From Oscarella lobularis (lineage: Eukaryota), in the NCBI RefSeq assembly GCF_947507565.1, contig NC_089192.1, positions 982,690-1,046,689 on the forward strand: a stretch of 64,000 nucleotides of DNA, in the 5' to 3' direction. Under the pieces are notes generated by a model. The model saw only the letters and a list, made by a program, of their open reading frames with translations, made no database searches and was not told the DNA's origin. Within the stretch, counting starts at the first letter, position 1. The number at the start of each line of letters is the position of its first letter. This document shows, one piece after another, positions 9,071 through 64,000 of the stretch. The translations under genes were made by a program, and so were the position numbers.

Positions 9071-12045
9071 TTAGATAAATTTGAAACATTTAGTTCTGTC
9101 CGAGGGTATCCTCGTCTTAAAAAGAATCGAATCGGCGCGAAATTGCGTGTAGAGTAGCGGCATGTAGCCGTAGACTTTAACGAAGTAATTAATGCATTCG
9201 TGACGTTCCTCGAAATGGCTGTTGTCGCCGGACAAGGCCTCCGGACAGCCGGGGCAGCGGAAAGTCCACCGCGAAGTAACCTAGAAATAAGATTAAAAGA
9301 GTTTCCGTTAAGAGGGTGACTCCCTTACCTTTACGGGCGGCTTTCGCGTGACGTGCGACACGAGAAAGTTCATTGCTATGTCCTCGCAGTTCATGTACTC
9401 GTCGACCTTGTCGCGTATCGATTGCGACATGGTATACGAGTAAAGATACATGTAGTACTGGGGGGGAGAAAGTCGAGCATTATTAGACAGACACTCCTTA
9501 GTTTGTCTTACCTTATGGAAAAACGCGGCACCGGTTAGTACCATTGACATTTCGCACGAATAATTCGCGTTGTAGTTCCACCTGCCTGGATGGCGTGCGT
9601 CCCACGCGTGAAACCGTCCCGGAAATCCGACGATGCGATCCTTATTCTCCCTCCAGACGCTGTTCGAAATAAGAGCCACAATAGTTGCAGTCAAGGCCCT
9701 CGCGAGAATTTTGTACCGCACCGAAAAGCAAGTTGAATTTCGTCGTGCCTTAAATGGGCGTCATCATCCATCGATAGTACGGCCTCCGTTTCGATTTTAT
9801 CGAACGGCAGGAAGCGATTGTTCAAACTGTTCTTCCCCGTCGTAATAACCTAGATAGAGGTATTGAACTGGGGGTGTATAAGCAACAGGCGAGACTCCTT
9901 TGCACTTACGTGTATTGGAATGCCAATGTTGGGCCATTCCATGTTGGCCGGCGGCGGTTGCGGATTGTTCCACACAACGACGATCGTGCGCAAGTACTGC
10001 AAATTCCGGAGCCGCTCCAGCGCCGCGGTCAGCACCAAATTGCGATCGAACGTCAACATGACAATCGTGAACTGTTCGTCCGGCACGTTGCCGGCGAGAA
10101 GAACGTCGAATTCGGGCCCATTCAAAGGCCCTCCGTCGCGAACTGTTCGGTGAAGATTCTTTCCTCGCCCGGGCCCCATGTACTGAAACCCCGAAGGCAG
10201 AGCGGAAACGAACGGCGTCACGGACGGCATCCCAACCAGCGCCCCAGGCGAATCGTTCCACGCATCGTAACTATTCAGCGTGAAATTTTTCTGAAATCGC
10301 GGCGACGGCGCTTCCACTGCTGCCACGCCACCCGCAGCCTCTCCGAACGGCGACGTTTCGCCGTCGGCAAACACGCCGACGGTGCGCGCTTCCGCGACGA
10401 CGTTCGGCGGCAAACCGATCCGCGTTCGCACGACGGCGACGACGCTATCGACGACGCGCGTCGCCGATCCGAAGTACGTCTCCCAGACGAAGCGTCCGCG
10501 TCGACGCATATCCAAGACGTCGCCTTCGGCGACGGCGCGAAGAAAGAAATTCAACTCGGTCGCTCGCGCGTCGGCGAGACGAAACGCAACGCGACTCCAA
10601 TCGAGTACGTCGTCGAAGGGAAGTCGAACGTCGCCAACGACGATGGGAACGGCGCCGGCGCGAAGCGATTCGACGAGACGCGCGTGCGTCGTCGTTTCTC
10701 CACCACCGAGAATGAGAGCGAATGTAGACGAAGATAAAGAGGCGACTCGTTGCGACGACGTTCCGCAGAGATGCCACTCGCCTGGACGCGCGACGACGGT
10801 GGCGTCTTTCGGCGCCGTCCGCGTGCATTCGGTTGCGACGACGAGTTCTTCGTTGTCGTGCGCTCGAATCGACGCCAGGTCGGCCGGCGTCGTTGCTAGC
10901 GACAACGGTTGCCGTGCGGGAGGATTCCACTCGCCGCGAAAGTAGATTAGGTAGCGTCGAAAGGCGGGAAGCTGGCGAGGCGGCGGCGGGAGTGGCGACG
11001 ACGAGGAGAACATCGCGATGGGCGGCGCGACGACGTCGAATCCACGCCGATGGCGCGGATTGGAGTGACGAGCGACGATCGCGCGACCGACGTTGTCGGG
11101 AAAGTTGTCCGTCGTCGTCGAATTGGTCACGTCGACGAGCAGGTGATTGCGACCGTCGCCGCGCCAATGGGCGAGCGACTTGAACGCGTTCTCGTCCCAC
11201 TGACGTCGTCGACTATCAACGAGAACGAGATAGAGGCACGCTCGATTTGGATTCGACGTGTAATAGGGAGCCAATTTGATGTGCAAGGCAAGACGTCGAA
11301 GCAACGCTGACTCGTCCGTCGCGGACCCCTCGTCGTACAAATGCACGGCAAATGGAGTCGTAAGAGAACAGCGCGAGAAATCGAAGCACGTCAAAAGCCG
11401 ACACGCCCCCGCCATTCTCTCGCCCGGAAACGGCACAGGAACCGCCGCGGCGTCTTGTGACGTCACCCCCGGCACAATGACTCGCTTCGGCGGTACGGCT
11501 TCGACGAGACGAACTCCTCCCCGACTCTCATCCGGGGATCGTTTCGCGACGACGACGACGTCATTCTCGACGCCGCCGCCGCCGCCTCGTTGAGAAGCGA
11601 GGCGACGAAGATCGGCGCGCGTCGCCTGGAGTTCGGCTTTCGCTTTGGCGACGTCGTGCGCGAGCGCGTTGCGTCGGCTCTTCGTCTCTTCGAGTCGCGA
11701 CGCCGCCGTTTGGGTCGCCTGTTGAATCGACTGGCGACGGCGCTCGAGATCGCGTACGTCGTTGCGTACGGCGTCGCGAAGTCGTTCGAGTTCGGCGATG
11801 CGACGCTTGAGCGACGCGCCGTCGTTTTCGTCTTCCAGCGTGCGCACTTGGGGTTTTAGGTGAACGACGGCGAAGTTTCCGTCGTCGTCGTCGCTCGCCG
11901 CGCCGTCGTCGACGTTCTTTGGGGTCGCCGGAAGGTTTAGAAGCACGCCGATGGGTACGAAGACGCCGACGACGAATAGGAGACCGAGCATCGGCCGCAG
12001 TGAGAGCCTGCGATGAAGTTGACGGAGAACACTGCGAAGAACCAT
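9071..12045 (-). CDS. Exostosin-family glycosyltransferase, EXTL3-like. It has an N-terminal TM anchor, a coiled coil, an exostosin GT47 domain and a GT64 domain. There is a large 5' exon (9850-12045) plus 3' exons.
   Basis: Minus ORF 9850..12045 begins [36 protein letters not shown] (signal anchor). It continues with a coiled coil and [41 protein letters not shown] (start of GT64). Minus ORF 9308..9721 adds [38 protein letters not shown] and [20 protein letters not shown]. The terminal exon ends ...TKCFKFI* near 9071. Confidence 0.8.
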
Positions 12046-12294
12046 TGTTATTCAGTTTTGTTATTCCGCCCACGTCCGTAGCGTGCGCTCGCGCCTCAGC
12101 GGAACTGTCGCGCGGCAATTACTGTCTCTATCCCGCTTATAGCTCCGCCGCGCGGTGTACCCCGCGGCACACCCTGAAGGCTTTCCATATGCCGCGTTGC
12201 AAAGAAATTACGCCCCTAAGCCAAACGGCCAGTGGGTGTGCTCGTATTCTAACGCGCGCTCGCGCCTTCGTTCGCGGCGGTTCGCGGAGCTGCA
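12046..12294. promoter_or_regulatory. Putative bidirectional promoter between the divergent EXTL3-like (minus) and RPAP2-like (plus) genes.
   Basis: About 250 bp separate two divergent start codons. The interval is GC- and CpG-rich. No TATA box was seen. Confidence 0.3.
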
Positions 12295-13760
12295 ATGGAC
12301 TCCAGACGAGCCGAATGGGAACGCAAAGCGCTGGAAGTCGTCGAAATACTACTAGCCGACTGTGTCGACGAAGCCACCCTGCTCGACTGCGTGAGAACGC
12401 GTCAATCGACGAAACAGAATGCAAAATGATCGATCTAACTTTCCCAGGCTAAGCGTATCAATCAAAATTACTATAGCGACGTTATCGAGGAACGATTCAT
12501 AATCAAACGATGTGGGTATCCTGTATGCGACAAGGTTCTTACCCAGGTAAACGAAGAAATTTCTACATGACACGACTAACTACATTTGTTTTGATGGCGG
12601 GGCAGCTTCCTAAGCAGAAGTATCACATTTCAGCTTCTCGGAACCGCGTCTATGATCTAACAGAGCGAAAGGTACCGAATGGACTTTTTTATATTTTTTA
12701 TTTCAATTAATGTTTCTGACGATATTTTGTAGAAATTTTGTAGCAATTGGTGCTTTAGAGCGTCGAATTATTTTGCAAGTCAACTGTCAACGGAACCGGT
12801 TTGGGCAATTGATGCCACCAAGTTGAGCATCTCCTTTGCTTTAGGAAGTGATTGTAGAGACGTGATTGACAGGTATAACGTGGAGCTTTTGACTGAGACG
12901 AAAGAGGCGGAAAAGACTCAGAGAGAGACGATTACTGCTACTGAGAGAGCGGTAGCGAAAGACAGGACGCACCTAAGTGACACTCAAGCTGAGAAAGAGG
13001 ACTCCGATTTTGCTACAGTTCAGTCCATACTGACGTCTTGGTACGAGCCGAGGCCACGTTTGTCAGAAGAAGACAATGCTGATGCCTGTAAAGGGCTCGC
13101 TGTCAGTGACGTGGAGTCCGAAGAGGATCAGAAAGTGTTGGACAAATTGAAACGATTTGGGATAAATCCTCAAACGGGGCAATTTCAGAGCGACTCCTCT
13201 AATCGAAGACCTTATGATGTCGTCGAACGTAGAACGAATGTATGTAAGGAAAAGGGAGAGGGGAAGGAGGGGCGATGAATACGAGACATGTGCAGGACTC
13301 TCCAATTGCTTTGCCACATCTTGATTCGGCGGCTCAAGACTCAAGCCGTCGTCAGATTGTGCTCGGCCATCTTAGCGCAGCATATAAAAGTTTTTCAGTA
13401 CAGGATCCAGATTATCTGAAGAAGTGCGTTCAAAAGCTAAGGTAATGCTTAGCGAGAAATGGTGTTCACACACACACATACAGGAATGCGTTGTTTCAAG
13501 GTTAGACCGTTCAAATATCGCCATGAAACCCAACCAGTGGAAACTAGCCGCTCTCATCGTTTTTCTCAGGTAGGTATCTAACGAAACAGAGGGAGCTCTT
13601 TTCTCCCCCTATGTGCTTTTGCATTTTAGCTCTACTGAAAACCCGTCGTCGACGATCCTCGACGAAGCAATGGAAAAGGTCCTTTCAAACAGTCACGCGC
13701 AGCGAGACGAGGTCAACAGACTCGCATTAGTCGTTTCGCGCAAGCAAGGTATACAGTAAA
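12295..13760 (+). CDS. RPAP2: RNA polymerase II-associated protein 2 / Rtr1-like zinc-finger protein, in several small exons. The 3' end is uncertain.
   Basis: Spliced exons read MDSRRAEWERKALEVVEILLADCVDEATLLDC | AKRINQNYYSDVIEERFIIKRCGYPVCDKVLTQ | LPKQKYHISASRNRVYDLTERK. This matches the Rtr1/RPAP2 zinc-finger core (CGYP.C ... Y.IS) by recollection. The acidic ORF 12823..13278 follows. Confidence 0.6.
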
Positions 13761-13819
13761 TGACATAAGCAAGGGAGCAGAAGCTCAAGAAATAGGTGAG
13801 ATGTGCACGTATAATATTT

Positions 13820-15096
13820 CTAAAGTTTTACTTCTTGCTCGGCGCTTCGATGCCTTCAAGCTGAGTCTATAGAGAGAAATGTTGAGGGGGAACGATTGCA
13901 TGCGCTTTTTTTCTCTTCGCCTACTTTGAGCTGGCTAATCGTTTTGCGGAGCGACTGGACTTCTTCCGTGTGCTTTGCGTCGTCCTGAACGCGTCGCTCC
14001 GCCTCTCGCTTCTCGATCGCCTCGCAACGATTCTTCGACTCTTGGAGATTTTTTTCCAATTCTTTTTTGTCTTCTTCGAGCTCTTTGATCTAGGGAGGAA
14101 GAAATCGGAAGGGGTGGATAAGGGAGGAAGAAAAGCCAGACTGGCTACCTTTTTCTCCATATCAACCTTTCCTTGTTCCGCTTGCAAAGCCTTTCGCATG
14201 CCAAAAGCAACGCTACAAAAACCGGGTATGAGCACCGTATGTACAGTGGAACCTCTCAATCAAAATTACAGTACAACACAAACAAATAATAATAATTGTA
14301 TTTTTTTGAGGTGGTGTCGAAGCTTTACCTGCTTTCATAGAGGGTTTGATACGCAGCAATAGTCATCCTGATTTCATTCCTCACCCTAGAAAAGTTAAGA
14401 GATCGTACACTTAGAGGGCAATGCTGTTACAAGAATTATCAAGAGGTTATTCTAGTAGGGTCAGAATCATAGATCGTACAGAGGGGCAGAAAGGTACCGT
14501 ACTCTTACATGTATATAAGGAGAGAGTACAGTACGTAGACTAAGTAGTCATACATTATGAGCCTATCCACGTTTACATAGGTGTTTTACTCCCTCGAGAC
14601 GAACCTGAGCAAGAGTAGCCCCCGTTCGGCGCAGTTGATCGTCACCTGACGTATGAGCTCGTCGAAACACTGCGAATAGAGCTCGCGTCGAACGGGACAG
14701 ATTCCCGTTTCGCGCGCTTGACGCTGCTGGAGACGCGTGTCGAGATGCTCCTGCAGCGCGACGACGTCCAAGCGCGTCGCCGGCGTGCTCGAGACGCTCT
14801 GCACCCAAAGCTGACCCGATTCGGTCCACTCGCGCGGCGGCAAGATCGCGTTGAGAATTTCCTCCGTTTGCTGGTTGCCCTTTTGAGTTTCGACCGACGG
14901 TAGTTTGCTTTTGGGAGCGGGCGGGACGGGGCCGCCTGTTTGCGTTTGGCGTCCGGCCGGAGATTTCTGCGCGAGAGCGCGAGAAAAATGTTGGGCTATC
15001 TAGTCGCGTTTGTTCGGGGCAAGCGCTTACCGAGGGTTTGCGTTCACCGGTTTTGCTTACGAGCACCGGGTTGTCGTATTTGACTAGGGACGCCAT
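13820..15096 (-). CDS. DNALI1: Axonemal dynein light intermediate polypeptide 1 (inner-arm dynein p28).
   Basis: N-terminus MASLVKYDNPVLVSKTGER. Then LPPREWTESGQLWVQSVSSTPATRLDVVALQEHLDTRLQQRQARETGICPVRRELYSQCFDELIRQVTINCAERGLLLLR, followed by SVAFGMRKALQAEQGK and a coiled-coil tail. The terminal exon reads TQLEGIEAPSKK*. Identity to the remembered human sequence is near-identical over the core. Confidence 0.9.
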
Positions 15097-15275
15097 CGAT
15101 TATTATTGTCAGGAACCGAACTCGGCCGTTGCTAAGACGATTGTGGCGTAGCGCGCGGTTTATTGGTAACGTCCCGCCCAGTCCCCGCAAGTCCCTGCAT
15201 AAGTATCTCTGCGGAGTTGTCTCTGCTCAGTCTGGACTCTAGAAGTGGCCCTAGTCCCAGAAAACCGAAAACGCG

Positions 15276-15669
15276 ATGAGAAAACGAAGAACGATCGGGT
15301 CAGCGGAAGCGAAGGCGGCGAAGAAGAATCGCGAGGACGTCGACGCGAGCGTGGCGACGATGAGTCACGCCGAGCTGCGTACTCGCCTCGAAGAGCTCGG
15401 AGATAAGCCCGGTCCCATAGACGATTCGAATAGGTGCAAAAATCGCTCACCCACGCCACGTACTCAAATTCAATTTCGAATCGTTCAGAAATCTCTACAA
15501 TCGCATGCTGACGAAGAAATTGGCTACTGTCGCCGAGTCCTCCCAACGAGAGGAGAAGGAGGAGGAGGTGGAGACGAAGGAAACGCCAGCTGTGACGTCA
15601 AAAGAAAGGGGTGGGAAAAAATCGAAAGAGGGCGTCTCGCAGAAAGGAAAAACGGCGCAACAGAAGGTA
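15276..15669 (+). CDS. Two exons encoding a LEM domain followed by a Lys/Glu-rich segment. The downstream partner is unclear. The second exon ends on a phase-0 donor.
   Basis: Exon 1 ends ...MSHAELRTRLEELGDKPGPIDDSN(R). Exon 2 continues NLYNRMLTKKLATVAESSQREEKEEEVETKE...KTAQQK|gtaaaa. The pattern LS..EL...L...G..GPI..S.R.LY...L.KKL is the LEM-domain consensus from memory. Confidence 0.5.
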
Positions 15670-15969
15670 AAAAATTTTTTAGTCGTGCACCTTAAAGAAT
15701 TGGCGTCACAATCGCTGATAAAGCGCGCCCTATCGAAAATCAATCGATTGCAGCCCGTTTTTACACTACGCTTTCACTTCACTTTGCGTCGTATCCGGAA
15801 GTGGTACCTCCCATTAGGATCAACAGGATATCACTTACACTCTTTCACATACACGATTCCGGATATGAGAATGCTTGAAGTTGTACATAAGACTAGCGTT
15901 TTTGCAGACCCGAATGGCCTTGTAGTCGTTAGCTCAGCTACTCGTGCAGTACATGCGATGCGTTTCTAG

Positions 15970-17406
15970 GTAAAGAAGTTGGGCATAGAGGGCGTCGTTG
16001 CCGCATCGTATACGCCCTTCAACACTGACGGGTATGTGGGGAGGAAAATTGCTTGAGGATGATGATAATACTCATTGCACAACAAGGTCATTAAATCTGG
16101 CGATGGTCGAACCTTATGCCAATTATTTGATACGTCTCGGAGTGGCGGGCGTATTCGGTTAGAAAGCAAAGTGTAACGACTTCCATTTGCGCTATTTTTT
16201 ATTCAGTAAACGGCACGACTGGCGAAGGCGTACTAATGACAGTCGACGAACGAAAGGCGATGGTAGAGGCGTGGGCGAAAGCGGTGAAGAAAAGGTATAG
16301 GACGAACCAGTGAAAGCCACGCATCTTCCACCCCCTGCACTCGCGCAGGGTCAAAGTCATCGTCCACGTCAGCTCGACTTCACTAAAAGATTGCCAAGAA
16401 ATGGTACAGATATATACAGTAAAGTGACAACCTGTGGTCCTTACGAGCTTCTTCTTGTTAAATTAAGGCTAGACATGCGTCGTCTCTCGATGGAGTCGAT
16501 GCCATAGCAGCGATGCCGCCGCTCGTTTTCAGTGCAAAAACCATAGGTCAAAACGATTTTTTCTCTTTTTTCTGAACTTTATTGATCGCTTCTTTAGAAG
16601 AGCTGCTCGTGCATCTCGAGTGCATCGCCTCAAGCGCTCCGCGCACTCCACTTCTATTGTATCACCACAGCGATATGTCTCCCTTGAATTGTAAGACGGC
16701 TCGATTTGAAAAATATGCTCGCAACTACTCGTTTTCCATAGTCAGCATAGAAGAGTTTCTTCGTCAGGCGGACAAACGTCTTCCGACGTTTGTCGGCGTC
16801 AAGTACACGGACTACAACGTCGACGTGTTCGCGCGATGTCTCAATCTGGGTCGCTATGAGATGCTATACGGTAGAGACGAGGTATAACCACGGCAGGCGA
16901 TCGATAGTTCAATCATATCGACCACGTGAATTTTCCCCCATAGCAATTGCTCGCCTCGTTGGCCATGGGCGCCGTTAGTTGCGTCGGTAGCACGTATAAC
17001 TTCACCGGTAGCATTCCCGCGAAGATTTTCGCTGCTTTCAAAAGCGGCGACATTGCTACTGCTCAGAAGGAGCAGGTTCGTTCCTGTATAAAATCGTCTC
17101 CGCCTATAAGGCACACTGCCGTTGTTTAACTATAGCTCAAGTCTCAGCTTGCTATAAAGACTTACAACGATGTTGGTGAGCTTGCAAGAATTGAGTTAGG
17201 ATTTACAAAACTTTATCTGTCTTGTCAAAGGCCGGCGTATTGGGTGCGCGTCGCCGCACGCTCTCGGCAAGGCGATCATGCACATGATTGGTTGTCCTGT
17301 CGGCGCGCCGCGTTTGCCCAGCAAGCCTCTCACCGACGCCCAGTACAAGGAGCTAAAGAGAAGTTTCGAAGAGATAGGCTTCTTCGATTGGCATCAGGCG
17401 TCGTGA
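15970..17406 (+). CDS. NPL: N-acetylneuraminate lyase (DHDPS/NAL family), in about 6 exons. The first recognisable exon is preceded by an AG acceptor, so the true start lies in an upstream exon.
   Basis: VKKLGIEGVVAASYTPFNTDG. LNLAMVEPYANYLIRLGVAGVF. VNGTTGEGVLMTVDERKAMVEAWAKAVKK. PLLLYHHSDMSPLNC. RLPTFVGVKYTDYNVDVFARCLNLGRYEMLYGRDEQLLASLAMGAVSCVGSTYNF. The C-terminus reads LGKAIMHMIGCPVGAPRLPSKPLTDAQYKELKRSFEEIGFFDWHQAS*. It is colinear with human NPL by recollection. Confidence 0.85.
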
Positions 17407-17489
17407 TGACTGCGGCGTTGTTTGATAACTTCTCTCGATTTTTGCGTGCGTTTTGATTTTTTTCTTTGTGACTTTAAGCAGATTGAAAA

Positions 17490-18250
17490 GTCGATGCAGA
17501 TTTCTGCTTTATAATGAATCGATTGAGAAATCCGTCTGTGTGATGTCGGAAGTCGTCCTAAAATAGATATTTTTCATTAGAAGTCAGTAAGTGACGTTCC
17601 TCAAGCTCGTTTTATATATTCTGTCGTCTTTCTTTTGCAATTCAACCTGTACTCGTCGACAGAAATGGAATGAAATTGAAGGCGAAGCAGAAGGCTATCT
17701 GGTTAGTACTACTATCTACAGTGCCGTTCAAAGTTCTAGGCGCCCTCATAGATACGTTTAGACTATTCCCGCTCCTCCGTTACCCCGTTTAGATTATTTG
17801 AGAGCTGATATACTGTCGTTTGCGTGTCCGAGTGTAGCGGACGTTTGGCTTGCCCGTCATAGAATCGACGTTAGCACCTTGATTTTGCTGACCAGGCGTA
17901 TTACCGCTCCTGCGTATGCGTTCGCTTTTCGCGTTCAAATAGAGACCGAATGTCTTTAGAATAGACCCGGGGGCCACAATGCATTTGCAACCGATTCATC
18001 GCTTCTACTTCTCGTCTTAGGCCATTTCGTAGCAACGTGATGATTGACGTCATGCGTTGCTTAATGTAGCGTGACAGGGCGTGTCCTGCGTACGTGGGCA
18101 CACGTTCGTTGTCCTTTTTTGCGTTTTGAATTGATTTCCAACGAAATTTCGTTTGTTTTAGCCGGCAGAAATGCATTTGAGGCCGATTGGCTGTTGTTTC
18201 GGTTCAAATGATGCCCTCTTTGATCGTGAATAGCTGCAGTCGTTCGGCCC
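17490..18250. repeat. Copy 1 of a non-coding interspersed repeat family. Relative to copy 2 it carries an internal insertion of about 400 bp (17790-18160) with gcagaaatgcatttg sub-repeats.
   Basis: 17520-17780 aligns to 22050-22310 at roughly 90% identity (gtgtgatgt[c/t]gga[a/g]gtcgtcctaaaatagata...ctgtactcgtcgacagaaatggaat...ctacagtgccgttcaaagt). 18160-18240 aligns to 22320-22400 (gcagaaatgcatttg...gatcgtgaatagct). Confidence 0.8.
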
Positions 18251-18773
18251 CAGTCGCGTTTTAAAGATTTCTAAGCGAGAAGACGCGTTTTTGGCCTTTT
18301 TAAGGTCAAACGACACGCGAGTTACCGAAGGGGGCCCCAGCTGAAATTTTGCAGAGTCTAACTAACAGTGTAGCGAATCGTGTATGACTCCCAAAAAACC
18401 CAAGTTAGCCAAGGTCATGCCAAAACATTTGAACGATACTGCGTATCTATCTAATCTTGGGTAAAGAAACCGTGGCCTGTCATTATACGTGGTAGAATAG
18501 GTAAACGTACGCTTTCGGCTTTCTCGACGACGACGACGACGGTCCCGGCCCAACGCCACGATTCATTTGGGGCGGGACTGACCTGATTAGATAGACAAGA
18601 TTGAAGCCAAGGAATTAAGGGTCATGCGTGGCAGGAACGTTTGGCATGCAGGTACAGAAGTCAGGTGCAGAGTGCAGCACAAGAATATGTCGCAAGTGCA
18701 AGAATGACTAGCTGCTACCCATATGTAAAAGAGAGCTCCAAGTACGGCAGAGCCAGAGCTCCTGCAACGAGAC

Positions 18774-21700
18774 ATGCTAAGAGTTTGGTCTTGCTTTCTC
18801 CTCGCCGCGGCGATTCGCCTTGCGTCTACTGCCGTCACGTCTCTTTCTACCGACTGGTGGCAGTGCCACGACGTCCAAGGACGCAATTTCGACGAAAAGA
18901 GTCCTGGCTCCATAATTGGCGTCCTCGTCAACACCGAGTGTACGCCCGCTTCATCAACAAAGCCCGATCACTTTTGCGAAGCCGCTTTGCTTGGCCCACG
19001 AACCATTCTGACCGCGTATGACTGCATAAAGTTATCAGAGAATCCCTCCGCAAAAGAGCGTCCGAAGTTATATTACAGCTATAAGTCAGATGGCAAGTGG
19101 CAGTGCCGTGAGGTTACTGCTCTCCAGCAACTCGGCGGATCCAGTGAAGCTGTCGGCTTTCTTGATGACGACGAGAGTCCAGCATTAGCGGCACCGTTTG
19201 TGAGTTTCGTTGGGGCCGGACAAGGGTCCGATGAGGCGCGATATAACGTTGCTCCCGAATCGCACCCCAACTATCCTGCCACCGTTTCGTCTCTCCTTCT
19301 TGGATTTATTGACGACAAACAAGTTAAACTGGGGTTTGAGTCTGATGACGATTCAGCTGTCGATGTCGTGAGCTTGAACAGTGAACCTCCTGATGCTGAA
19401 ATTCTTCCCGGAGCGACGTTTCTAAAAGAATTACCTGATTGTCGTTTAGGGGTTTTTGGTGTTTATAGCCAGCTGGTTACTGAGAGTGAAGACATAGGAC
19501 AAGTACGAGATAAGCGAGGGGGTAAGAAACCTCAGAAAGCCGCGCCAAAGAAAAAGAACGCAATGCGAAGCAAAAATCAAACTAGAGCAAAAGATCGCAA
19601 TACTGAGCTGCTGGAAAAACGCGATGAAAAACGCGATGCGATTCGAAAGGAGGAGCTTCAAGCGATAGCGAAGGCAGATGCCGCCGCAAGCAGCGCCTTT
19701 TACTTTGGAGCTAAAAGTGCGAATATTTCCGGCTGTAGAGGTTCAAGTAATTGAGTTCGTAATTTTTCTATAGTTGCAACGTTCAACTTGAATTGGACTC
19801 CGTTGCTTGATCGAGACATGGGAGACATCGTCAAAACGACGCTGCACGAAATCATTAAAGAGACGCATATCATAGCTTTTCAAGAAGCCACCGGCCTTAT
19901 GAAAAAAATATCTCTACCGAAAAACTACGGATATGTGGACTCGAAGAAAGAGTTTGTTTTTATCTACAGGTCAGATTGGTTCGTTCATGAAGACAAAGTG
20001 GAAATGCTCAATGACCTTAACACTTACAAAGCTGTCTTTCAGGTAAGATAGTTTTGGGTAAAGTTTTTGTTAAATTTCAGCTATAAATGAGATTCAAAAT
20101 ATTTTTCTGTAGGCCTGGAACATTCCTGCAGAGGGGCAGCCGCGGGATAAATGTGTCGCGTTTTATTCTGTTCACCTTCCAGCAGGAAAGGAGAAACAGA
20201 AAGACCGAGAAAAACGACTTCAAAAAATTGTTAAAAAAATGGCCGAAGACAGGAAGGAGTGCAAGGCGCGAGTTCTCTTGGGAGATTTTAATTGGCCGAC
20301 ACTTCGTGGCGAAATCTCCAATTTTGAACTGTAAATTAATTAACTGTGAATGCTACAGTTAGTTTCAAAGCCCCGAGTCTTGGGAATGCAGTCCACAAAG
20401 CATGCCAACAGTTGGTTTTGCATGGTACTCTTCTAACTTGAGACTCTCAAGTTAGAACAGTACGCTGCTATGCAATGAGACGTAACTAACCGTTATTCTC
20501 ATGCATGTGAAACCTTTGAATAAAGTAGATGCTTTGCATACTAGAATTAAGAGAGACAATGTACGTGGTAGAAGTTTAGTTTAGTTTGTTTTATTTGGCG
20601 TAACAGACCCACTAGATAGAAGGCCTTCTAAAAGAAATTCAGCAAATACAGTAGAGTAGCAGTAATGTAATTTGTCAAATTCAAACAGTTTTTGTTTTTT
20701 TAGATTTTTCACTAAATTTGAACTTGAATCTTTATCCGATTCCGTTCCGCCTCATAATATCGCTGCCGAAGATCTGAATGAATTTGGCGAAACGACTCCG
20801 AGGCACGGGGTTTATGACTACATTTTTATTACCGACGACGTCCCAACGCCTTCATCTTACTATTTACCACCAGAAAATGTTCTCTCACTTGACCATCCAA
20901 AAGCGGATTTTATAGAAGAGCGTTATCTTGATTATTTTGTACCCAAATCGAGTGTTTTGAAGAACGTTCCGGCTGTAAGATCAAGCTTCTTAAGCGATCA
21001 TCTTCCTGTTGTCGGAAAAATAGCAAAACATGGAGTATCACTTTCTATTGGAACGTGGAATTTGGAGCGCTTTAACTTGCAAACCGGGTTTGGCGGCGGT
21101 AGCCGAGAAAAGCTTTTTGAGGAAATGTACGAAAAGGTGTTTGCCAATGCAGATGTATTTGCCATTCAGGAACTCTTAGTCGCTTCTACACCAGCTAATG
21201 ACTTTTCTAATTTTGGAGTGACGTGGGTTTCGGAGGCTGTTCAGACGACCAACGGCGGAAATACAGAGGGCCTCGGGTTTGCGTATAATAAAGCTTCAGT
21301 AAAATACGTTGATAAATTTATAATTTCTGTGGAGGCGTACGGTAGCAAGACAAGCGAACGAGGAGCATTAGCTGCAAAATTTCGAATCACAAAAAATTCC
21401 GAGGTGAGCTATGAAAAGTAGTGTCTGCTAAACATCTGACATAACATGTACATGTACCATAGGAATTTGCCATTGTGAATGTTCACGTTACAAATGACCA
21501 AGTGACAAAGTGGTCGTATCGTGAAGCAATTGTCAAATTCGTCCGGGATAAAGTAAAGAAAAAGTGGGGGAAGCTACCAGTCTTTGTAGCTGGTGACTTT
21601 AATTTTGACGGATCAAATATAGCAAACCTAAGAAAGAAGTGAGATTATCTTTTTTTGTTTTAGTAACATTTGCAATTTGTTCTGCTTTCAGATGCCCCAT

Positions 21701-21950
21701 TGGTAACACCAATTGGGAATTTACAAGAATCTACAGTAAGAAAGTCCTAGATTATATTATCGCTCCAGGTCAAACGCTTCCCGGTCACGGTTTTACATCC
21801 TGTGAGACTATCCACTCCGAGCTTAGAGCTAATACAGTTGGCTCCAAACGTGCTCCGGCGTTTGGCTCGTGGCTTGAAGTGTCCGATCATTTTCCGGTTT
21901 TCAAACGTATAAGTCAAATCTGGGAAGATGTGGATATGGACTTATAAATG
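18774..21950 (+). CDS. Secreted protein locus. It has an N-terminal signal peptide and a domain of about 320 aa (18774-19754), followed by two tandem DNase-I-like (endonuclease/exonuclease/phosphatase, EEP) domains across about 6 exons. It may be one gene or two adjacent genes.
   Basis: Signal peptide MLRVWSCFLLAAAIRLASTAV. EEP domain 1: ATFNLNWTPL...HIIAFQEATG ... VLLGDFNWP ... SFLSDHLPVVGKI. EEP domain 2: SLSIGTWNLERF ... ADVFAIQEL ... VFVAGDFNFDG ... WLEVSDHFPVFKRI. Together these give the N..E / QE / GDFN / SDH motif set of the DNase I branch of the EEP superfamily. Exons are markedly AT-richer than the neighbouring genes. Confidence 0.6.
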
Positions 21951-22029
21951 AGGAGAGAAAACATGCCAGTGAGTTCATGCGACGAGTCTTACACAAAACG
22001 ATGGCATAAATTCTTGATGTTTTTTGTTA

Positions 22030-22400
22030 TACATGTATGAGTTTCTTTATCCGTTTGTGTGATGTTGGAGGTCGTCCTAAAATAGATAAGTTTCATTAGA
22101 AGTCAGTGAGTGGCGTTCCCCAAACTCATACATTCGTTTTATATATTCTGTAGAGGTTGTCTTTCTTTGGAATTCAACCTGTACTCGTCGACAGAAATGG
22201 AATAGAAATTGAAGGCGCAGCAGAAGGCTATCTGCTTAGTACTGCTATCTACAGTGCCGTTCAAAGTCCTAGGCGCCCTCATAGAAACGTTTAGACTAAT
22301 CCCGCTGGCTTGCCCGAAATTTCGTTCGTGTTTGTTGGCAGAAATGCATTTGGCCGATTGGCAGAAATTTCGGTTCAATGACGCGCTGTTTGATCGTGAA
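22030..22400. repeat. Copy 2 of the same interspersed repeat family, without the ~400-bp internal insertion. It lies in direct orientation relative to copy 1.
   Basis: See the copy-1 alignment. The two copies bracket the EEP locus. Confidence 0.8.
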
Positions 22401-22480
22401 TAGCTTGGTTCATGGCTTGAAGTATCCGATCATTTTCCGGTTTTCAAACGTATAGACAAAATTGGCCCATGAAGATCCAC
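22395..22480 (+). pseudogene. Duplicated fragment of the last EEP exon (WLEVSDHFPVFKRI...) placed immediately after repeat copy 2.
   Basis: 22395-22460 (cttggttcatggcttgaagtatccgatcattttccggttttcaaacgtatagac) is near-identical to 21858-21925 (cttggctcgtggcttgaagtgtccgatcattttccggttttcaaacgtataagtc). Confidence 0.7.
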
Positions 22481-22903
22481 ATGATGGTAGACGATGATGA
22501 TGACGTGAAGGTGAGAGGATGAAGACAAGTCTGGACGTGGTAGAATAGGAAGAGTATGTCGAGTAGATCGTTAAGGTTTTAGAATCACTTATGGTATAAA
22601 CAATATATATCCGAGTCATAAAAGCTCGTGACACGAGTAAAAGGACGTGAGAGCTTTGAAGAGCTGGCACAGCGCTCAATTTGTAAAGCACAAATAGGAT
22701 TAAATTTCCTAGAGTCTCAGATGCAAGTTTTCTTGATTGATTGATTGAGATTTTTTTCAATTTGGAACAATCACTCGGCAATCACTCAAGGCACACGCAA
22801 AAGTACTGTATGAACAACATACGGGGATTTTGTAAAGCTCGTGACACGAGTAAAGACCTCTCAGCCTCAGTAGAGACAGCAGATCAAAATCGTCACCGAG
22901 CAG

Positions 22904-25865
22904 ATGAGCGGAGGCAGCAAACGTCTCAACCGCTATACATTCGATCCCGATCGGCCCCAACTCCAGGCACCGGACAGCGACGAAATGAATCCCCTCCTCG
23001 GCTCGCAGCAGAGCGGCGCTGCGCCGACGATGACGAGCAAGGGAATGTTTCGCATGTTCGCTTGCTCGTTTATCGCAACGATCGGCTCGCTGATCTTCGG
23101 CTATTGTCTCGGATTCTCGTCGCCGGCACTCGTCGATCCGTTGCTGGTCAAGGACATACTGGGCGAGTCGGCGCAGAATTGGTTTAGCGTAAGAACACAC
23201 GCGAATCGCAGCCACGGCGCGATTTTCCTAAGATATCGTCCATGCCACGCCCTCGTGTTGTAACACGTACTGCACATAGGTGTAGAGATTTCTTTGTTGT
23301 TGAACTCTAAACATAGAGAGGTGTACGTACTCGTACAACTATTAGTAAGAGTGTTACCAATACTTTTAGTAAGTGTTTAGTGGGAGGTATCAAAATTTGC
23401 CCCATGCTTGTTCTTCCAATCAAATTATTTTCTTGGATACAAATCTTATATTTTCTCTCGCAGTCTATTATCAATATTGGTGCTGCCATTGGCGGGGTTT
23501 CCACGTCGGCTATCGCCGTCAAATTCGGTCGCAAAGGAACGATTATGTTCGCCGGGCTACCGTATGCGATCGGCTGGCTGCTTGTTCTCCTTCCCGCCTA
23601 TCTGCACACGCTGGACGGCGTGTCCAACTCTCTTCTCGTGTCACTTCTTCTCGTTGGTCGCGCCCTATCAGGCGCCGGACTTGGTATAGCGTCTGGCATC
23701 ATTTCGGTGAGTGAAAGCAAATCATTCATTTCAGATGATCCCCCCTTAGTAGTTTGTACCCTGGGTGCATGAGCAGTTCTGAGTCAGACGCAAGTAGCAT
23801 AGGCACTTCATTTTATATGCAAAGGCTACTGAGATTAGATCTCAATAATGTAACATACAGGTGCTAGTTCATAATATTAATATTATTTATTTTGCGTCTT
23901 CTAGATCTACATTTCTGAAATAGCGACTCCCGCGTATCGCGGTTTCCTCGGCACATGCTTTCAACTCTCCGTCACGATAGGCCTTCTCCTATCCTACCTC
24001 TTGGGTCGTGAGCTCGCCCACTATCCGTGGCTGGCGACGGTCGCTCTCGTCCTCACGGCGAGTCTCGTCGTTCTCGGCCTTTGGATTCCCGAGAGTCCTC
24101 GCGCACTTCTCCTCAAGAATCGTCCCGACGAGGCGCGTCGCAGTCTCGAGTGGCTCCGCGGCGGCCCGGGCGTCGACGTCGGTCGCGAGTTGCAAGACAT
24201 CGAGAAGACCCTCATGGATCAGGAGCCTTTTGCCTTGGGCGAATTGTCGAAGCCGACCATATGGAAGCCGTTCGCCGTCGCCTTGGGTCTCATGTTCTTT
24301 CAGCAATTCTCCGGAATCAATGCCGTCGCTTTCTACGCGAGCGTCATCTTCGACGGCGTCGGCTCGTCATTTCAGGAGAAGAACGGTCCACTTATCATAG
24401 CCGTCGATCAGGTATATTAATTAATTAATTACTCGCAGGGTCCATAAGTAATTTTAGTAGAAATAATCTCACAAGGTCCATGAGTTATTTTAATAGAAAT
24501 AATCTCATTCTGTAGAAAATTACTCATAGGGTCCATGAGTACATTTTCTAGAGATAGTAATGGCAGGAAGAAAAAATTCTATTTTCCCTTAGCAGTCGGA
24601 CGCTGCCATTGACCACGCCATTATTATGCACGAGTGGTGTTCCTTGCGCCTGAACCGCAAGCGCCGCTCGCGCGCAACGAGTTAGACACTTACCTCTCAA
24701 AAGTGGGCGTTCCCGCCATCGCTACACTGTAACTTTTTATGCGCGAGTGGCGTTCCATGCGCCTGAACCGCAAGCGCCGCTCGCGCGCAACGAGTTAGAG
24801 ACACTTACCCCTCAAAAGTGGGCGTTCCCGCCATCGCTACACTGTAACTTTTTATGCGCGAGTGGCGTTCCATGCGCCTGAACCGCAAGCGCCGCTCGCG
24901 CGCAACGAGTTAGAGACACTTACCCCTCAAAAGTGGGCGTTCCCGCCACATCGCTACACTGTACTTTTTATGGGCGAGTGGCGTTCCTTGCGCCTGAACC
25001 GCAAGCGCGGCTTGCGCGCAACAACTTGCAGACACTTGTTGATCAAAAGTGGGCATTCCCGTCAACGCTATATTATGCTTTTTAATTGGATGCATTTTAC
25101 TAGAAATAATCTCAAGAAAATTACTCACAGGGTCCATGAGTAATTTTACTAGAAATAATCTCAAGGAAATTACTCACAGGGTCCACGAGTAATCTCATAG
25201 AAAATTACTCACAGGGTATCTATGGGTAATTTTACCTGAAATTTTCTCATAGAAAATTAATAACTTAAAAATAATGTAGTAGAACCATCCAGCGTGTTTA
25301 TTTTATTTCATATCTTTTTTTTTCCTTACCAAAGGTTGTTGCCACTGCTATCGCCGCTCTGGTTATGGATAAGCTGGGTCGACGAAAACTCCTCGTTCTC
25401 TCTGGAACACTCCAGTGTCTAAGCATCGTCGCGCTTGGCGTCTTCTTCCAAGTCAATCACTGCCTGAACGTGAAGGAGCCATCCGATTCACCCTGTACGT
25501 CGTCGCCCGAAGTCGGTCCGCTTTCCCTCGTCGCTCTCATCGTCTACATGACGGGCTTCTCGTTCGGCTGGGGCGCCATACCGTGGCTCCTCATGTCGGA
25601 GATATTGCCGTCGAAGGCGCGAACCATTGCCGGCGGCGTGTGCACGTTCTTCGTCTGGATGTGCTCCTTTGCTGTGACGTACATGTTCAATTCGTTGACG
25701 AAGTTGATTCACAAGAACGGCACGTTTTATTTCTTCGGCGGCTGGGCGTTCGCTTCCGTCATCTTCGTGCTGCTGTTCGTGCCGGAAACGAAAGGAAAGA
25801 CGCTGGAGGACATCGAAATGTACTTTGAACGTGGCAATAAAAGAGCAATCAATGACGATTCGTAA
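22904..25865 (+). CDS. Major-facilitator sugar transporter, Tret1/GLUT8-like. It has 4 coding exons (22904-23190, ~23463-23706, ~23905-24416, ~25334-25865) and a large third intron full of repeats.
   Basis: MFACSFIATIGSLIFGYCLGFSSPALVDPL. LLVGRALSGAGLGIASGIIS. IYISEIATPAYRGFLGTCFQLSVTIGLLLSYLLG. PESPRALLLKNRPDEARRSLEWLRG. FFQQFSGINAVAFYASVIF. Exon 4 has the GWGAIPWLLMSEILPSKARTIAGG and PETKGKTLEDIEMYFE sugar-porter signatures. Confidence 0.85.
24425..24560. repeat. Intronic tandem repeat with a unit of about 42 bp and 3 copies (attactca[c/t]agggtccatgagta[a/c]ttttactagaaataatctca).
   Basis: Direct reading. The same unit recurs at 25095-25260. Confidence 0.8.
24600..25085. repeat. Intronic tandem repeat of about 122 bp with 4 copies, the last one degenerate. 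Core is gcgagtggcgttcc[a/t]tgcgcctgaaccgcaagcgccgctcgcgcgcaacgagttagagacacttacccctcaaaagtgggcgttcccgcca(ca)tcgctacactgtaactttttat.
   Basis: Direct reading. Units start near 24600, 24725, 24845 and 24965. Confidence 0.85.
25095..25260. repeat. Second block of the 42-bp intronic tandem repeat, about 4 copies, in the same orientation as the 24425 block.
   Basis: Direct reading. Confidence 0.8.
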
Positions 25866-26759
25866 GGGAAGGGAGGGAGGTTTGGTGTGGGGGGAACGGG
25901 GGAATGTGCGCCTTTCTTTTGAATACGACCAGTCATTTATTTGGTTTCTTACCCACTGTTGGTTCGCACGCATTTTTATGCTTAGAGTCGAGCAAAGGCA
26001 CACCAGGACGGTATCTCCAAGCCGAGTCCCGCCTTCAATCAATTCCATTTCAATTATAATTATTATTATCATCATTATTAGTATTATTAGTATGACCATC
26101 GTTGTGCTTTTAGAATTGAGTGCAAGTTCGGCAAAGTGCAGCAGACACGTGTACGTTCTTTCGAAGTCTCTACGCAGTCGTAGCGAGCGTTTTCTTCGTT
26201 CTCGTCTTTCTCGGCAACGGGGCAGCGAGCTCGCCGATTCTCGGCGACGCGTGTGCCGTCAAGGCGGCTCGACTCACCGTCCACGCGTTCGGATTATAGT
26301 TGTCTCGTCCGCCCTCTCTCGGTCTCGATAGCTTCTGTATGCGATCCGTTGCCATGGCACTCATGGCCCCGCGACTCACATCCCATTTCACTTCTCTGCA
26401 CGGCTCGTAGCTCGAGTGGCATCGCTTGTGCTGAGAGAGAAGGAGAATTCGATTCGACGGCTCGGCGTCTCCTCTCCTTGATTGACTTGAACCTAAATTC
26501 CTACTGGGTGTTTCCGCGTCGCGTTGGTAAGTGTGCTTGGGTTGAGCAAGCGTTCGAACTCGAGCGCTGCAGATGGCGCGCTTTGCTCTGTCGCTCACAA
26601 CCGTTTCAACCTAAATCAATAAATTTTCTGCCTACCTAAAATTATGTATTGATTGGGGCGTCTTAGTCATGTTTAATTATGCATGCATTAGACGTCATAA
26701 CCAATCAATACTAGCTGACTGGGGTTCTAATTATATCAAGTACTGCTGATTCAATACTG

Positions 26760-27460
26760 TATGTGTAGTGTGAGCTGACCTCTTTGGGTGGCTCGTACAG
26801 AGGATGACCTTCTTTTGCCTGAGAAAGCCTTTCAATTCGTTGAGGGCAGGTTCCTTGTAAAGCAGCGCTTGAAACCGGCCACATTGGGCTTGGTCTTTGT
26901 ATATGGGGAAAAAAAGTGCGCGTTTTTTTATAGATCGTTGTCTGACTGAAATAATCAAAACCTGTTCTCTAAGTAGTGAGGATGAAGTCGCTTGGAATAG
27001 TAGAGAGTCTCTTGACGAGGTGTGAGAACTAAAGTATGGACACACTCCATGAAAGATCCTCCCTGACTACGCCCCCACTTTGCTACCGTACAGTACTGAC
27101 CGAATTCGGTCGTTTTGCCTGTATAAGTCGGCACATTCCAATCCCAATAAACAGATCTTCTATTAAACAATTAGAATGAAAGACAACTCGAAGCCTATCG
27201 CATCTGATTGGCCAAATCATTTACCTGTCTTCGAGGAAGTTGCTCGGTATCGATTTCGATGCCGCCAACTCGTCGATTCGTCGCGTTTGACTCGCGTCGT
27301 ACGAAAGAGAACGCGTGCGACGTTGAGTTGACATCGCCGGGATGTTGCTACGCGACGGTACTGATACGCACGTACGCGCAGCGCGAGCAATTTGCGCATC
27401 GGACGGCGCATCATTTCCTCGTTTCGGCGAAAGGTCGACGCCATCGCGGTTTTTTGTGAC
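26760..27460 (-). CDS. Small multi-exon gene of unknown function, about 4 exons. The protein is basic and about 200 aa long.
   Basis: Minus-strand exons joined by GT..AG introns: ...MASTFRRNEEMMRRPMRKLLALRVRAYQYRRVATSRRCQLNVARVLFRTTRVKRDESTSWRHRNRYRATSSKTG | RSVYWDWNVPTYTGKTTEFGQYCTVAKWGRSQGGSFMECVHTL | VLTPRQETLYYSKRLHPHYLEN | RQRSIKKRALFFPIYKDQAQCGRFQALLYKEPALNELKGFLRQKK... There is a faint resemblance to MRPS24 but it is not convincing. Confidence 0.25.
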
Positions 27461-27545
27461 GACGTCCGAATGAACGACAGCTTAGGGTAAAACGCGCACT
27501 CGCGACGACTTGATAGGGGATCAGGAGGGCCCCCTTTCACACAGA

Positions 27546-29755
<2,210 letters not shown>

Positions 29756-62877: not shown

Positions 62878-64000
62878 TCATTTTGACGTCACGTCGCCGA
62901 TTTCGTTTTCTTCGTCGTCGCCCAACAGCTCGGGGCACTTCATTTCGCCTTTTGTTATTTTATCCATAGCGCACAGCAGATCATAATTGATTTCATCCGA
63001 GACTACGGAATCCTTCTTATACTTTGGATGGCTGCGTATAAATTTGCGCATCCACTGTGCACCAGTCAATACTTTGCCTGAAGAATAAAGGGAAAAACCA
63101 AGTCAATGATTTTTTGCACTAGTGCCTGACTGACTGACTGACCTGCTGCTCTCTTTTGCATAAGATTCAAGTAGCGACGTATGGTAGAATGTGTATCCGT
63201 GTCTAGATCAATCAAATCCAAGTAACGCCATATCAGAGGAACCAGACCAGGAAATCCTCCATCCTAAAAAGTGATAATAGTTCAAATAATATCAATTAAA
63301 GTCGACGCAACTAATTTACTATTCCGTTAATAACGGCATCAATCGACATCAATTCATATTCAGGTTCTCCTTCGTTCGTCTCCAAATCTTCCCACCAGAA
63401 AAAACGTAAATAATTTTAAAAATAGGTTTGATTGTAACCGACCTGAAAACGGCTGACGCCTAAAATAAAATTCCTCCGCTTGAACTGCGTCTCTTCTCTG
63501 CGCTTTATCCATGTTCTCGTCAACCTAATAGATCGATAGTCGCCACAGAAATATACGTGGATCTTCTTACTTTGGAAATAGGCACGTAAAAGGTGAGCCC
63601 TAAAGACAAAATGGCTCTCGTAAGAAGAATGACGAAGACGGAGTAGGCGGCATTCTCAAAGTCCGTCACTTGAACCTACAAAACAAAGAGAGAAAAATAA
63701 ACAAAAATGAAGTTAATTAATTAATTAATTAAACGCACATCGCAGACTCGAAATTCGACTCTCCATCCAATATCTGAATTGGGTGGCGGCGGCTTGAATC
63801 GCATCGACTGCCAGTTAGTTGACTGAATGTTCTAATAAAACAATGCTCTATTACTAATTAATTAAATTAAAAATTCTAAGCGAAATTAGTATTTGGGGAG
63901 GTCAACCTACTTCAAAATGGTCAGACTCGTTTTCCAGATTTTGGTAAATTTTTTCAGAGAATAGAGACACTGTGTCGCGAATGAAAAGATGCGCAATGTG
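62878..64000 (-). CDS. 3' part of a multi-exon gene of unknown function. It continues past the window end.
   Basis: Minus exons joined by GT..AG introns: [35 protein letters not shown] | ... | [41 protein letters not shown] | (K)[64 protein letters not shown]. One hydrophobic segment is present. No confident family assignment was made. Confidence 0.3.

Follow-up and report, generated by a model that had tools for sequence, protein, structure and literature searches.

The question raised by this locus is whether a gene that differs in base composition from its neighbours and lies between direct repeats has to be a newcomer. The gene is found in a 64,000-nucleotide stretch of Oscarella lobularis DNA (NCBI RefSeq assembly GCF_947507565.1, contig NC_089192.1, positions 982,690 to 1,046,689 of the forward strand; referred to simply as the window), and it encodes two EEP domains in tandem. 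An earlier note, made from the letters of this stretch, had taken it for a recently acquired, duplicated or mobilised cassette and had offered two readings, namely a horizontally acquired nuclease or toxin-like effector, and a fast-evolving, lineage-specific secreted nuclease. We consider it probable that the gene is an old, endogenous animal gene for a secreted tandem-EEP protein, and that the repeats around it come from a decayed duplicate.

On the basis of open reading frames (ORFs) and GT-AG junctions, the tandem-EEP gene was modelled at 18774-21947 on the + strand, with six exons and 2562 coding nucleotides for 853 amino acids. The coordinates of its parts are collected in the table below. 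Introns in the window were of the GT-AG type and mostly 50-70 nt long, as expected of eukaryotic DNA. By inspection, exon 1 starts with a signal peptide (MLRVWSCFLLAAAIRLAS...), and the claim that one polypeptide carries a signal peptide and then two complete EEP domains was borne out. Upstream of the start codon, the stretch 18700-18773 was the sole one that could be aligned to the relative L004 (a Logan contig of SRR25569769 whose exon 1 has about 93% nucleotide identity); beyond about -74, L004 is unrelated to the window. The introns of the gene other than intron 3 measured 53-70 nt, and the near-perfect palindrome of intron 3 (GTACTCTTCTAACTTGAGACTCTCAAGTTAGAACAGTAC) is possibly a small insertion.

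The ORF of exon 1 closes with a TGA (19752-19754) that shares its frame with exon 2, and the earlier note had left open whether this exon belonged to the transcript. In our model the TGA lies inside intron 1. In the second haplotype (contig ptg000030l, L003, of the ENA assembly ERZ18545485, collinear with positions 9697-28987 of the window at 98.7-99.2%), a 1-nt insertion falls in the 27-nt segment GTAATTGAG...CTATAG, and in L004 a TAA replaces the TGA. Because of this haplotype indel and the TGA/TAA difference, the 27-nt segment is taken to be untranslated. Stop-codon read-through, or selenocysteine at the TGA, was thereby ruled out. Intron 1 also matches that of the O. lobularis paralogue (L006), since both are in phase 1 and have the same acceptor context (...CTATAG/TTGCA in the window, ...TTTTCAG/TTGCA in the paralogue). 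Moreover, in two homologues, P0021 and P0022, the same N-terminal domain is joined to the first EEP domain (EEP1) within single transcript-derived ORFs. Given these fusions, the untranslated TGA segment and the phase-1 intron of the paralogue, exon 1 is predicted to be part of the same gene as exons 2-6, which settles the point that had been left open.

Two phase-compatible donors are available for intron 1, one at 19717 (giving an intron of 57 nt) and the other, CAA/GTAATT, at 19747 (27 nt). We infer that the 57-nt form is used, because introns here normally have 53-70 nt and because the paralogue has a GTGCGT donor; an intron of 27 nt would be implausibly short. The product of the 57-nt splice reads ...FGAK-IATFNLNW, which resembles GAKIATWNIN of the nemertean Lineus.

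If the TGA after exon 1 did truncate the protein, the EEP exons would no longer be translated and the gene would be a dying gene or a pseudogene. The in-frame stop, its counterpart in L004, and the lack of a full-length RefSeq protein among the matches of the protein scan described below could be read in this way. So could the signs of relaxed purifying selection (dN/dS about 0.5) and the decayed duplicate fragments close by. We nevertheless regard this as quite unlikely. The stop coincides with the phase-1 intron of the paralogue, which has the same acceptor sequence, and two phase-compatible GT donors are at hand to remove it. All 2562 of the 2562 coding nucleotides are open in both haplotypes, which differ at 2 of them, and the catalytic residues of both EEP domains are intact. 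When the gene was compared with L004, synonymous changes per site exceeded non-synonymous ones, with dN/dS of 0.49-0.57 (0.49 for the N-terminal domain). The same ratio between the haplotypes is uninformative, there being just 2 coding differences. The window gene thus appears to be under mild purifying selection.

Relatives of the window protein were sought by scanning 1.84 billion protein cluster representatives exhaustively with phmmer at E<=1e-3. This gave 14 relatives, of which the named ones belong to Oscarella spp. and the nemertean Lineus longissimus; no identifiably bacterial relative was present among the proteins scanned. From Oscarella pearsei came the transcript ORFs P0022 (937 aa, with the full architecture of the window protein), P0021 and P0019, and the transcripts of the family in this species are EP00118_P028712, P013499 and P013500. 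O. lobularis itself has a paralogue on another contig (XP_065837149.1, P0023; 609 aa), to which an ORF of assembly ERZ18545485 is identical at 192 of 193 residues. The Lineus member is XP_064651353.1 (P0024; 568 aa). The other matches were one ORF from an ENA metagenome assembly (P0025) and short SRA-derived fragments, one of which (P0018) is 80% identical to exon 1. An alignment-seeded search with the window protein returned three entries, all for the N-terminal domain alone.

The tandem-EEP proteins of Oscarella and Lineus have the two EEP domains in the same order and with the same catalytic columns as the window protein, at 25-42% identity to it. They differ in what precedes EEP1. The O. 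pearsei proteins have the N-terminal domain in common with the window protein, the Lineus gene has just a signal-peptide exon there, and exon 1 of the O. lobularis paralogue is another one, of 88 aa and with no obvious signal peptide. Exon 1, which lies before the phase-1 intron, thus appears to be the variable, exchangeable module of the family. It may be noted that P0025 (470 aa; L007 6001-7413, on a 1.73-Mb contig of ENA ERZ25878582) covers part of EEP1 and the whole of the second domain, EEP2, in an uninterrupted ORF. It is an intron-less relative on a gene-sparse contig, and possibly a retrocopy.

The earlier note had not recognised this architecture from known DNase I family members. Full-text searches of the literature on tandem EEP or DNase proteins, nemertean DNase toxins and the evolution of the DNase I family gave no description of it, and a survey of DNase evolution (PMC9208542), read with this question in mind, gave none either. 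We conclude that the window gene is a member of a tandem-EEP family that is very small, uncharacterised, ancient and patchily retained.

The exon structure bears directly on the age of the gene. Exact spliced mapping showed that the window gene, the paralogue (L006) and the Lineus gene (L009) each have five introns, with phases 1-0-2-0-2. Introns 2 and 3 are at identical positions or at most 3 residues apart in all three genes, and introns 1 and 5 are at identical positions in both sponge genes. The surroundings of the gene are also partly shared. A gene of the DHDPS family is its immediate upstream neighbour in the window and the immediate downstream neighbour of its counterpart in Lineus. 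Four exons of the sponge DHDPS-like gene (16197-16283, 16741-16812, 16983-17081 and 17278-17391) are collinear with the Lineus DHDPS gene at 37-52% amino acid identity, and a Pfam DHDPS match falls at 16947-17126. Given roughly 2x10^4 genes, the odds of meeting the same neighbour by chance are estimated at about 10^-4; hence the linkage of the EEP and DHDPS genes is most likely older than the split between sponges and bilaterians. The pair is arranged head-to-tail in the sponge (16197-17406) and tail-to-tail in Lineus (L010 16069-22620, OU343009.1), and the EEP and DHDPS/NPL-like genes may form a very old microsyntenic pair.

The base composition of the gene had been one of the main reasons for suspecting a foreign origin. 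The GC content of its coding sequence is 0.45 and that at third codon positions (GC3) is 0.43, with 0.47 for exon 1 and 0.37 for exon 4. For the neighbours, GC3 was 0.69 (an EXTL3-like gene), 0.58 and 0.69 (DHDPS exons), 0.60 (a 559-aa ORF) and 0.71, 0.49, 0.70 and 0.66 (sugar-transporter exons). The region of the EEP gene has 39-43% GC, compared with 46-54% for most of the window. The AT-richness that had been described is therefore real as a moderate difference (0.43 against 0.49-0.71), and the statement that every neighbouring gene is GC-rich was too strong. The paralogue on the other contig is equally AT-rich (GC 0.425, GC3 0.44). For this reason low GC3 is a trait of the family and not a mark of foreign origin.

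A recent acquisition would mean that a bacterial or viral nuclease or toxin gene, or one carried by a transposon, had been inserted between the DHDPS-like gene and that of the sugar transporter. Its GC3 below that of the flanking genes, the direct repeats around it with an exon fragment beside the downstream repeat, and its patchy distribution in a very small family would all agree with such an event. We hold it to be highly improbable. The five GT-AG introns follow the phase series of the paralogue and of the nemertean gene, an orthologous DHDPS gene is adjacent in Lineus too, the low GC3 is shared by the paralogue, and no bacterial relative came up at E<=1e-3 among the 1.84 billion proteins scanned, all named relatives being animals. 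The repeats, as described next, are themselves old and lack the features of a mobile element. Thus, the view of a recently acquired or mobilised cassette did not survive the comparison with conserved introns, DHDPS adjacency, animal relatives, an AT-rich paralogue and diverged repeats. The alternative of a fast-evolving, lineage-specific secreted nuclease came nearer, as far as the rate goes (dN/dS about 0.5 against the relative, and an indel-rich linker).

The bracketing direct repeats were confirmed at 17530-18235 (R_A, upstream) and 22049-22405 (R_B, downstream), at 84-87% identity, but not up to the outer limits proposed for them. Extension of the repeats to 17490, 18250 and 22030 was rejected, the alignment beyond the blocks being no better than with shuffled sequences. 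R_A consists of two blocks separated by a segment that is absent from R_B. The 10-mer GGCTTGCCCG of this segment persists in R_B at 22307-22316, between the blocks; the chance of such a 10-mer within 368 nt is estimated at about 3e-4. The retention of GGCTTGCCCG implies that R_B arose from an R_A-like sequence by two deletions, and is not the second end of an element. All repeat features of the locus are also carried by haplotype 2 (L003).

Abutting R_B is an orphan copy of part of the last exon, designated tail' for its correspondence to the 'tail' of exon 6. Of the approximately 85 bp of last-exon copy that had been reported here, 50 nt (22405-22454) held up and the remainder was not significant. 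In frame, tail' reads FGSWLEVSDHFPVFKRI followed by DKIGP and a stop. Codon reading showed that all 3 of the 3 differences between tail and tail' are synonymous and at third positions. Since the differences are all synonymous and the frame has been retained, tail' is suggested to have formerly been part of a functional second copy of the gene.

The order R1-remnant-R2-tail' is collinear with R1-insert-R2-promoter-gene-tail, R1 and R2 being the two blocks. Insertion with a 50-bp target duplication, as an origin for R_B, was ruled out by this collinearity of R_B plus tail' with R_A...tail and by the internal remnant of the R_A-only segment. The repeat sequence contained no terminal inverted repeat (TIR), long terminal repeat (LTR), inverted repeat or poly-A, and a search of 17000-23000 against Rfam gave no match. 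The repeat had no further copies in the window, in the locus of the paralogue (L005/L006) or in the alternate haplotig L002, with roughly 110 kb sampled. The divergence between the repeats (13-16%) is comparable to the dS of 0.15-0.2 between the gene and L004. These observations are best read as a decayed local tandem duplicate, and not as transposon ends. A unit of repeat, promoter and gene would have been duplicated in tandem, and the interior of the second copy would then have been lost through several deletions, so that R_B, the remnant of 10 nt and an exon tail of 50 nt were left. L004 has a decayed signal-peptide start at nt 104-151, some 300 nt before its real start codon, a hint that local duplication has recurred. 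The 15-mer ACGTGGTAGAATAGG occurs twice in the window against 0.06 matches expected, and could be a shared regulatory motif or a further remnant of duplication.

To characterize the protein, each EEP half was compared with Pfam PF03372 (Exo_endo_phos), the check that had been proposed along with the original domain assignment. Both halves aligned end to end and exceeded the gathering cut-off of 24.5 bits (27.5 and 29.2 bits, respectively), and the homologues scored 32-67 bits. In the family alignment, the invariant columns of EEP1 are N7, Q39-E40, H113, D150, N152, D203 and D263-H264, and those of EEP2 are N11, Q47-E48, H133, D170, N172, D204 and D249-H250. Both halves contain the N..E, QE, H, GDFN, D and SDHxP motifs, which do not vary within the family, in line with the motifs described earlier. 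The two domains showed no detectable similarity to each other by BLASTP, and were found to be homologous by profile-profile comparison with hhalign (98.7% probability, 16% identity).

Searches of the PDB with single sequences of the EEP halves were uninformative, and family profiles were used instead. Over positions 5-257, the EEP2 profile matched DNase1L3 (7kiu, 9.9e-9) and further structures of the DNase I family (9fju, 2.4e-7; 1dnk, 6.8e-7), DNase I being at about 1e-7, and the next EEP structure after the DNase I family had an E-value of 4e-4. The best match of the EEP1 profile was a Bacteroides mannosyl-6-phosphatase (7e-5), followed by sphingomyelinase C (0.02), with no DNase I match at E<=0.1. 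Of the two domains, which had both been placed on the DNase I branch, only EEP2 appears to be specifically DNase I/DNase1L3-like (1e-8 to DNase1L3 over its full length). The AlphaFold2 (AF2) model of the paralogue P0023 (pLDDT 59) gave in Foldseek a list made up entirely of EEP enzymes, with DNase1L3 first, followed by TDP2, DNase I and neutral sphingomyelinase.

EEP2 shares with DNASE1 and DNASE1L3 a full-length alignment and the N/E/H/D-N/D-H motifs, and the window protein shares with them secretion by a signal peptide. Like DNase1L3, it has a basic segment outside the catalytic core. It differs from the DNase I family in its low identity (~16-19%), and in having two EEP domains and an N-terminal domain that is not a nuclease. 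Members of that family have a single catalytic domain of ~260 aa after the signal peptide, and the window protein has ~853 aa. According to PMC9208542, the family consists of single-domain enzymes, most invertebrates have a minimal repertoire of one such gene, and a C173-C209 disulphide is common to all members. EEP2 has at least one invariant Cys (C185), and another Cys is kept in the consensus of the family. These two residues are paired by HMMER with the pair of DNase1L3, but the same alignment misplaces the LDYII motif; relative to the D212-equivalent motif, the Cys pair is not placed as in the DNase I family. In view of its tandem architecture, its extra N-terminal domain and its identity of ~16-19%, the window protein, a member of the EEP superfamily with a DNase-I-like second domain, would not be an ordinary DNase1 orthologue.

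The likeness to CdtB that had been suggested was not upheld. CdtB has the EEP fold and the SDHxPV motif in common with the window protein, but its match (2f1n, E 0.018) was marginal and partial, with no stretch passing on its own. No CdtA or CdtC partners are encoded at the locus, the neighbours being intron-containing DHDPS-like and sugar-transporter genes.

The relatives of EEP1 point to another possibility, in which lipids or phosphoglycans are the substrates of one EEP domain or of both, as for a sphingomyelinase-like cytolysin or a sugar-phosphate phosphatase. The window protein would then be a membrane- or glycan-directed effector and not a nuclease. The best solved relatives of EEP1 are BT3783 mannosyl-6-phosphatase of Bacteroides thetaiotaomicron (4c1r/3mpr) and sphingomyelinase C (2ddr). 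3mpr also ranks high in the Foldseek list of the paralogue model, which further includes neutral sphingomyelinase and inositol phosphatases, and the conserved neighbourhood holds a sialic-acid-lyase-like gene. These matches of EEP1 are weak, however, and BT3783 and 2ddr are bacterial single-domain enzymes. For EEP2, the profile alignment with DNase1L3 and DNase I runs over the whole length and is better by four orders of magnitude than that with any other EEP structure, and the basic linker suits a polyanionic substrate. Taken together, this reading, in which the protein is not a nuclease, seems unlikely.

In front of the EEP domains, exon 1 encodes a Cys-containing domain of ~210 aa that is kept in P0018, P0021 and P0022. 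The profile of this domain gave 126 matches in the PDB, and 60 of the 60 listed were chymotrypsin-fold proteins, aligned at the C42-His57-C58 loop and at the correct distance from the domain start. Plasminogen was the best of them (E 0.0065), with HGF and heparin-binding protein among the others. Pfam Trypsin stayed below its cut-off of 20.6 bits (13.3 bits for the window protein and 15.3 bits for P0022), matching one 25-aa motif. The catalytic triad (His57/Asp102/Ser195) is broken, with TAAHC changed to TAYDC, TAQIC or TSFEC, and GDSGG to GATFL. The position of His57 is Y, Q or F across the relatives, and Tyr in the window protein. With these triad residues lost, the domain can at best be a pseudoprotease or binding module. 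In this it is like the HGF beta chain and azurocidin/heparin-binding protein, in which the catalytic His and Ser are replaced; the likeness to them is limited to ~30 residues around the C42-C58/His57 loop (E 0.006-0.3, under the Pfam cut-off). The faint resemblance to an inactive trypsin fold that had been noticed in this segment is borne out by PDB profile matches solely to the chymotrypsin fold, and the domain is probably a decayed trypsin-like pseudoprotease. It is followed by a linker of ~75 aa, rich in Lys, Arg and Glu, which is fast-evolving, with indels and a dN of 0.32 against L004, and is probably helical.

Several observations weigh against parts of the account given so far. With respect to the gene model, the donor of intron 1 could be that of the 57-nt or of the 27-nt form. 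No RefSeq protein for the window gene appeared in the protein scan, in which O. lobularis RefSeq proteins were included; this suggests that the gene was missed or flagged (e.g., as a pseudogene) in RefSeq owing to the short, stop-containing intron at the exon 1 junction. With respect to the age, introns 1, 4 and 5 of the Lineus gene do not coincide with those of the sponge genes but differ from them by 4-7 residues, within loops that are rich in indels. With respect to the duplication, the two copies of ACGTGGTAGAATAGG are out of order for a simple two-copy event, and the sequences that follow tail and tail' showed no homology, aligning no better than shuffles. As for the protein, the substrate is deduced from homology alone, the closest solved relatives of EEP1 are non-nucleases, the trypsin-likeness depends on a single motif with marginal E-values, and the AF2 model of exon 1 (pLDDT 36) is unusable for assignment of a fold. 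We still favour the old, endogenous tandem-EEP gene with a decayed duplicate beside it.

Table. Features of the tandem-EEP locus, in window coordinates
Feature	Position	Strand	Basis or comparison
DHDPS/N-acetylneuraminate-lyase-like gene, 3' exons; upstream neighbour of the tandem-EEP gene	16197-17406	+	stop 17404-17406
R_A block 1	17530-17773	+	87% identical to 22049-22306; haplotype-2 copy 91% to R_B
R_A-only segment, 368 nt, holding GGCTTGCCCG at 17847-17856	17774-18141	+	alignment
R_A block 2	18142-18235	+	84% identical to 22315-22405
15-mer ACGTGGTAGAATAGG, copy 1, ~290 nt ahead of the EEP start codon	18487-18501	+	
Putative proximal promoter/5' untranslated region, conserved, with TATA-like TATGTAAAAG at 18722-18731	18700-18773	+	79.6% to L004; function inferred
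Exon 1: signal peptide (~aa 1-20), trypsin-like domain (~25-238), linker (~239-314)	18774-19716	+	ORF
Intron 1, phase 1, preferred 57-nt form, donor AAAA/GTGCGA	19717-19773	+	
Exon 2: start of EEP1 (ATFNLNW ... AFQEA)	19774-20042	+	
Exon 3: core of EEP1 (SVHLP, LGDFNW)	20113-20330	+	
Intron 3, 373 nt, unusually long, with 39-nt palindrome at 20425-20463	20331-20703	+	
Exon 4: end of EEP1 (YDYIFI, LSDHLPV; to ~21028) and start of EEP2 (from ~21029: GTWNLE, AIQEL)	20704-21403	+	
Exon 5: core of EEP2 (NVHVTN, AGDFNF)	21463-21638	+	
Exon 6: end of EEP2 (conserved Cys, LDYII, second conserved Cys, VSDHFPV), stop TAA 21945-21947	21692-21947	+	
'tail': 50 nt of exon 6 copied downstream	21862-21911	+	
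R_B, blocks 22049-22306 and 22315-22405, with 10-nt remnant between	22049-22405	+	haplotypes 100% identical
tail', orphan last-exon copy abutting R_B	22405-22454	+	47/50 identical to tail
15-mer ACGTGGTAGAATAGG, copy 2, ~355 nt upstream of the sugar-transporter ATG	22535-22549	+	

The gene downstream of the tandem-EEP gene is that of the sugar transporter, with its ATG at 22904. One of its introns contains a 115-nt tandem repeat (24624-25070; 3.9 copies, 91% matches), of which haplotype 2 (L003 14918-15608) apparently has about six copies, so that it would be a length-polymorphic minisatellite. Further upstream, an EXTL3-like exostosin (GT47+GT64) is encoded on the - strand by an uninterrupted 731-aa ORF (9850-12045), whose closest named match, at 44%, is from the homoscleromorph sponge Corticium candelabrum. 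This ORF, with 62% GC, is the most GC-rich stretch of the window and is present in the alternate haplotig L002 too; contig ptg000061l of assembly ERZ18545485 carries an exact copy of it. The ends of the window are AT-rich (31-32% GC for 1-2000 and 39% for 63001-64000), beyond the AT level of the EEP gene.

We infer the biochemical activity of the window protein from its domains. It would be a secreted protein of ~853 aa, with a signal peptide, a degenerate domain resembling the chymotrypsin fold, a basic linker, a divergent EEP domain and an EEP domain like that of DNase I and DNase1L3. Because both EEP domains retain the full set of metal-binding and catalytic residues, Mg2+/Ca2+-dependent cleavage of phosphodiester bonds outside the cell is its most likely activity. 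The C-terminal EEP domain would act as a DNase-I-type endonuclease, with DNA as the substrate at least here, and the N-terminal one is likely to be active as well, with either DNA or a different phosphodiester as its substrate. Binding of polyanions could plausibly be aided by the basic linker, and the pseudoprotease module could serve in binding or targeting. Plausibly, such a protein would digest the DNA of bacteria or prey, or DNA matrices outside the cell.

What, then, does this locus mean? Low GC3 and flanking direct repeats, even when they occur together, were insufficient evidence for horizontal acquisition. Two complete and catalytically intact EEP domains in one secreted protein stand apart from the EEP/DNase I enzymes as described, which are monomeric phosphodiesterases of a single domain; invertebrates are reported to have a minimal DNase1 repertoire (PMC9208542). 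With only 14 relatives in 1.84 billion proteins, yet with an intron structure and a neighbour common to a sponge and a nemertean, the gene is a candidate for an ancient gene lost almost everywhere. The locus also makes it tractable to test if nuclease domains in tandem shift cleavage from nicking to double-strand cutting. It is tempting, though we hold the idea to be doubtful, to see in it an ancient metazoan 'two-headed' secreted nuclease that has been linked to NPL/DHDPS since before the sponge-bilaterian split and lost in most animals. If this were true, two active sites combined with exchangeable N-terminal targeting modules would allow both strands, or DNA and a second phosphodiester, to be cut per encounter, and such an enzyme may serve, for example, in the digestion of bacterial or prey DNA and of biofilm matrix by filter feeders and mucus-secreting worms.

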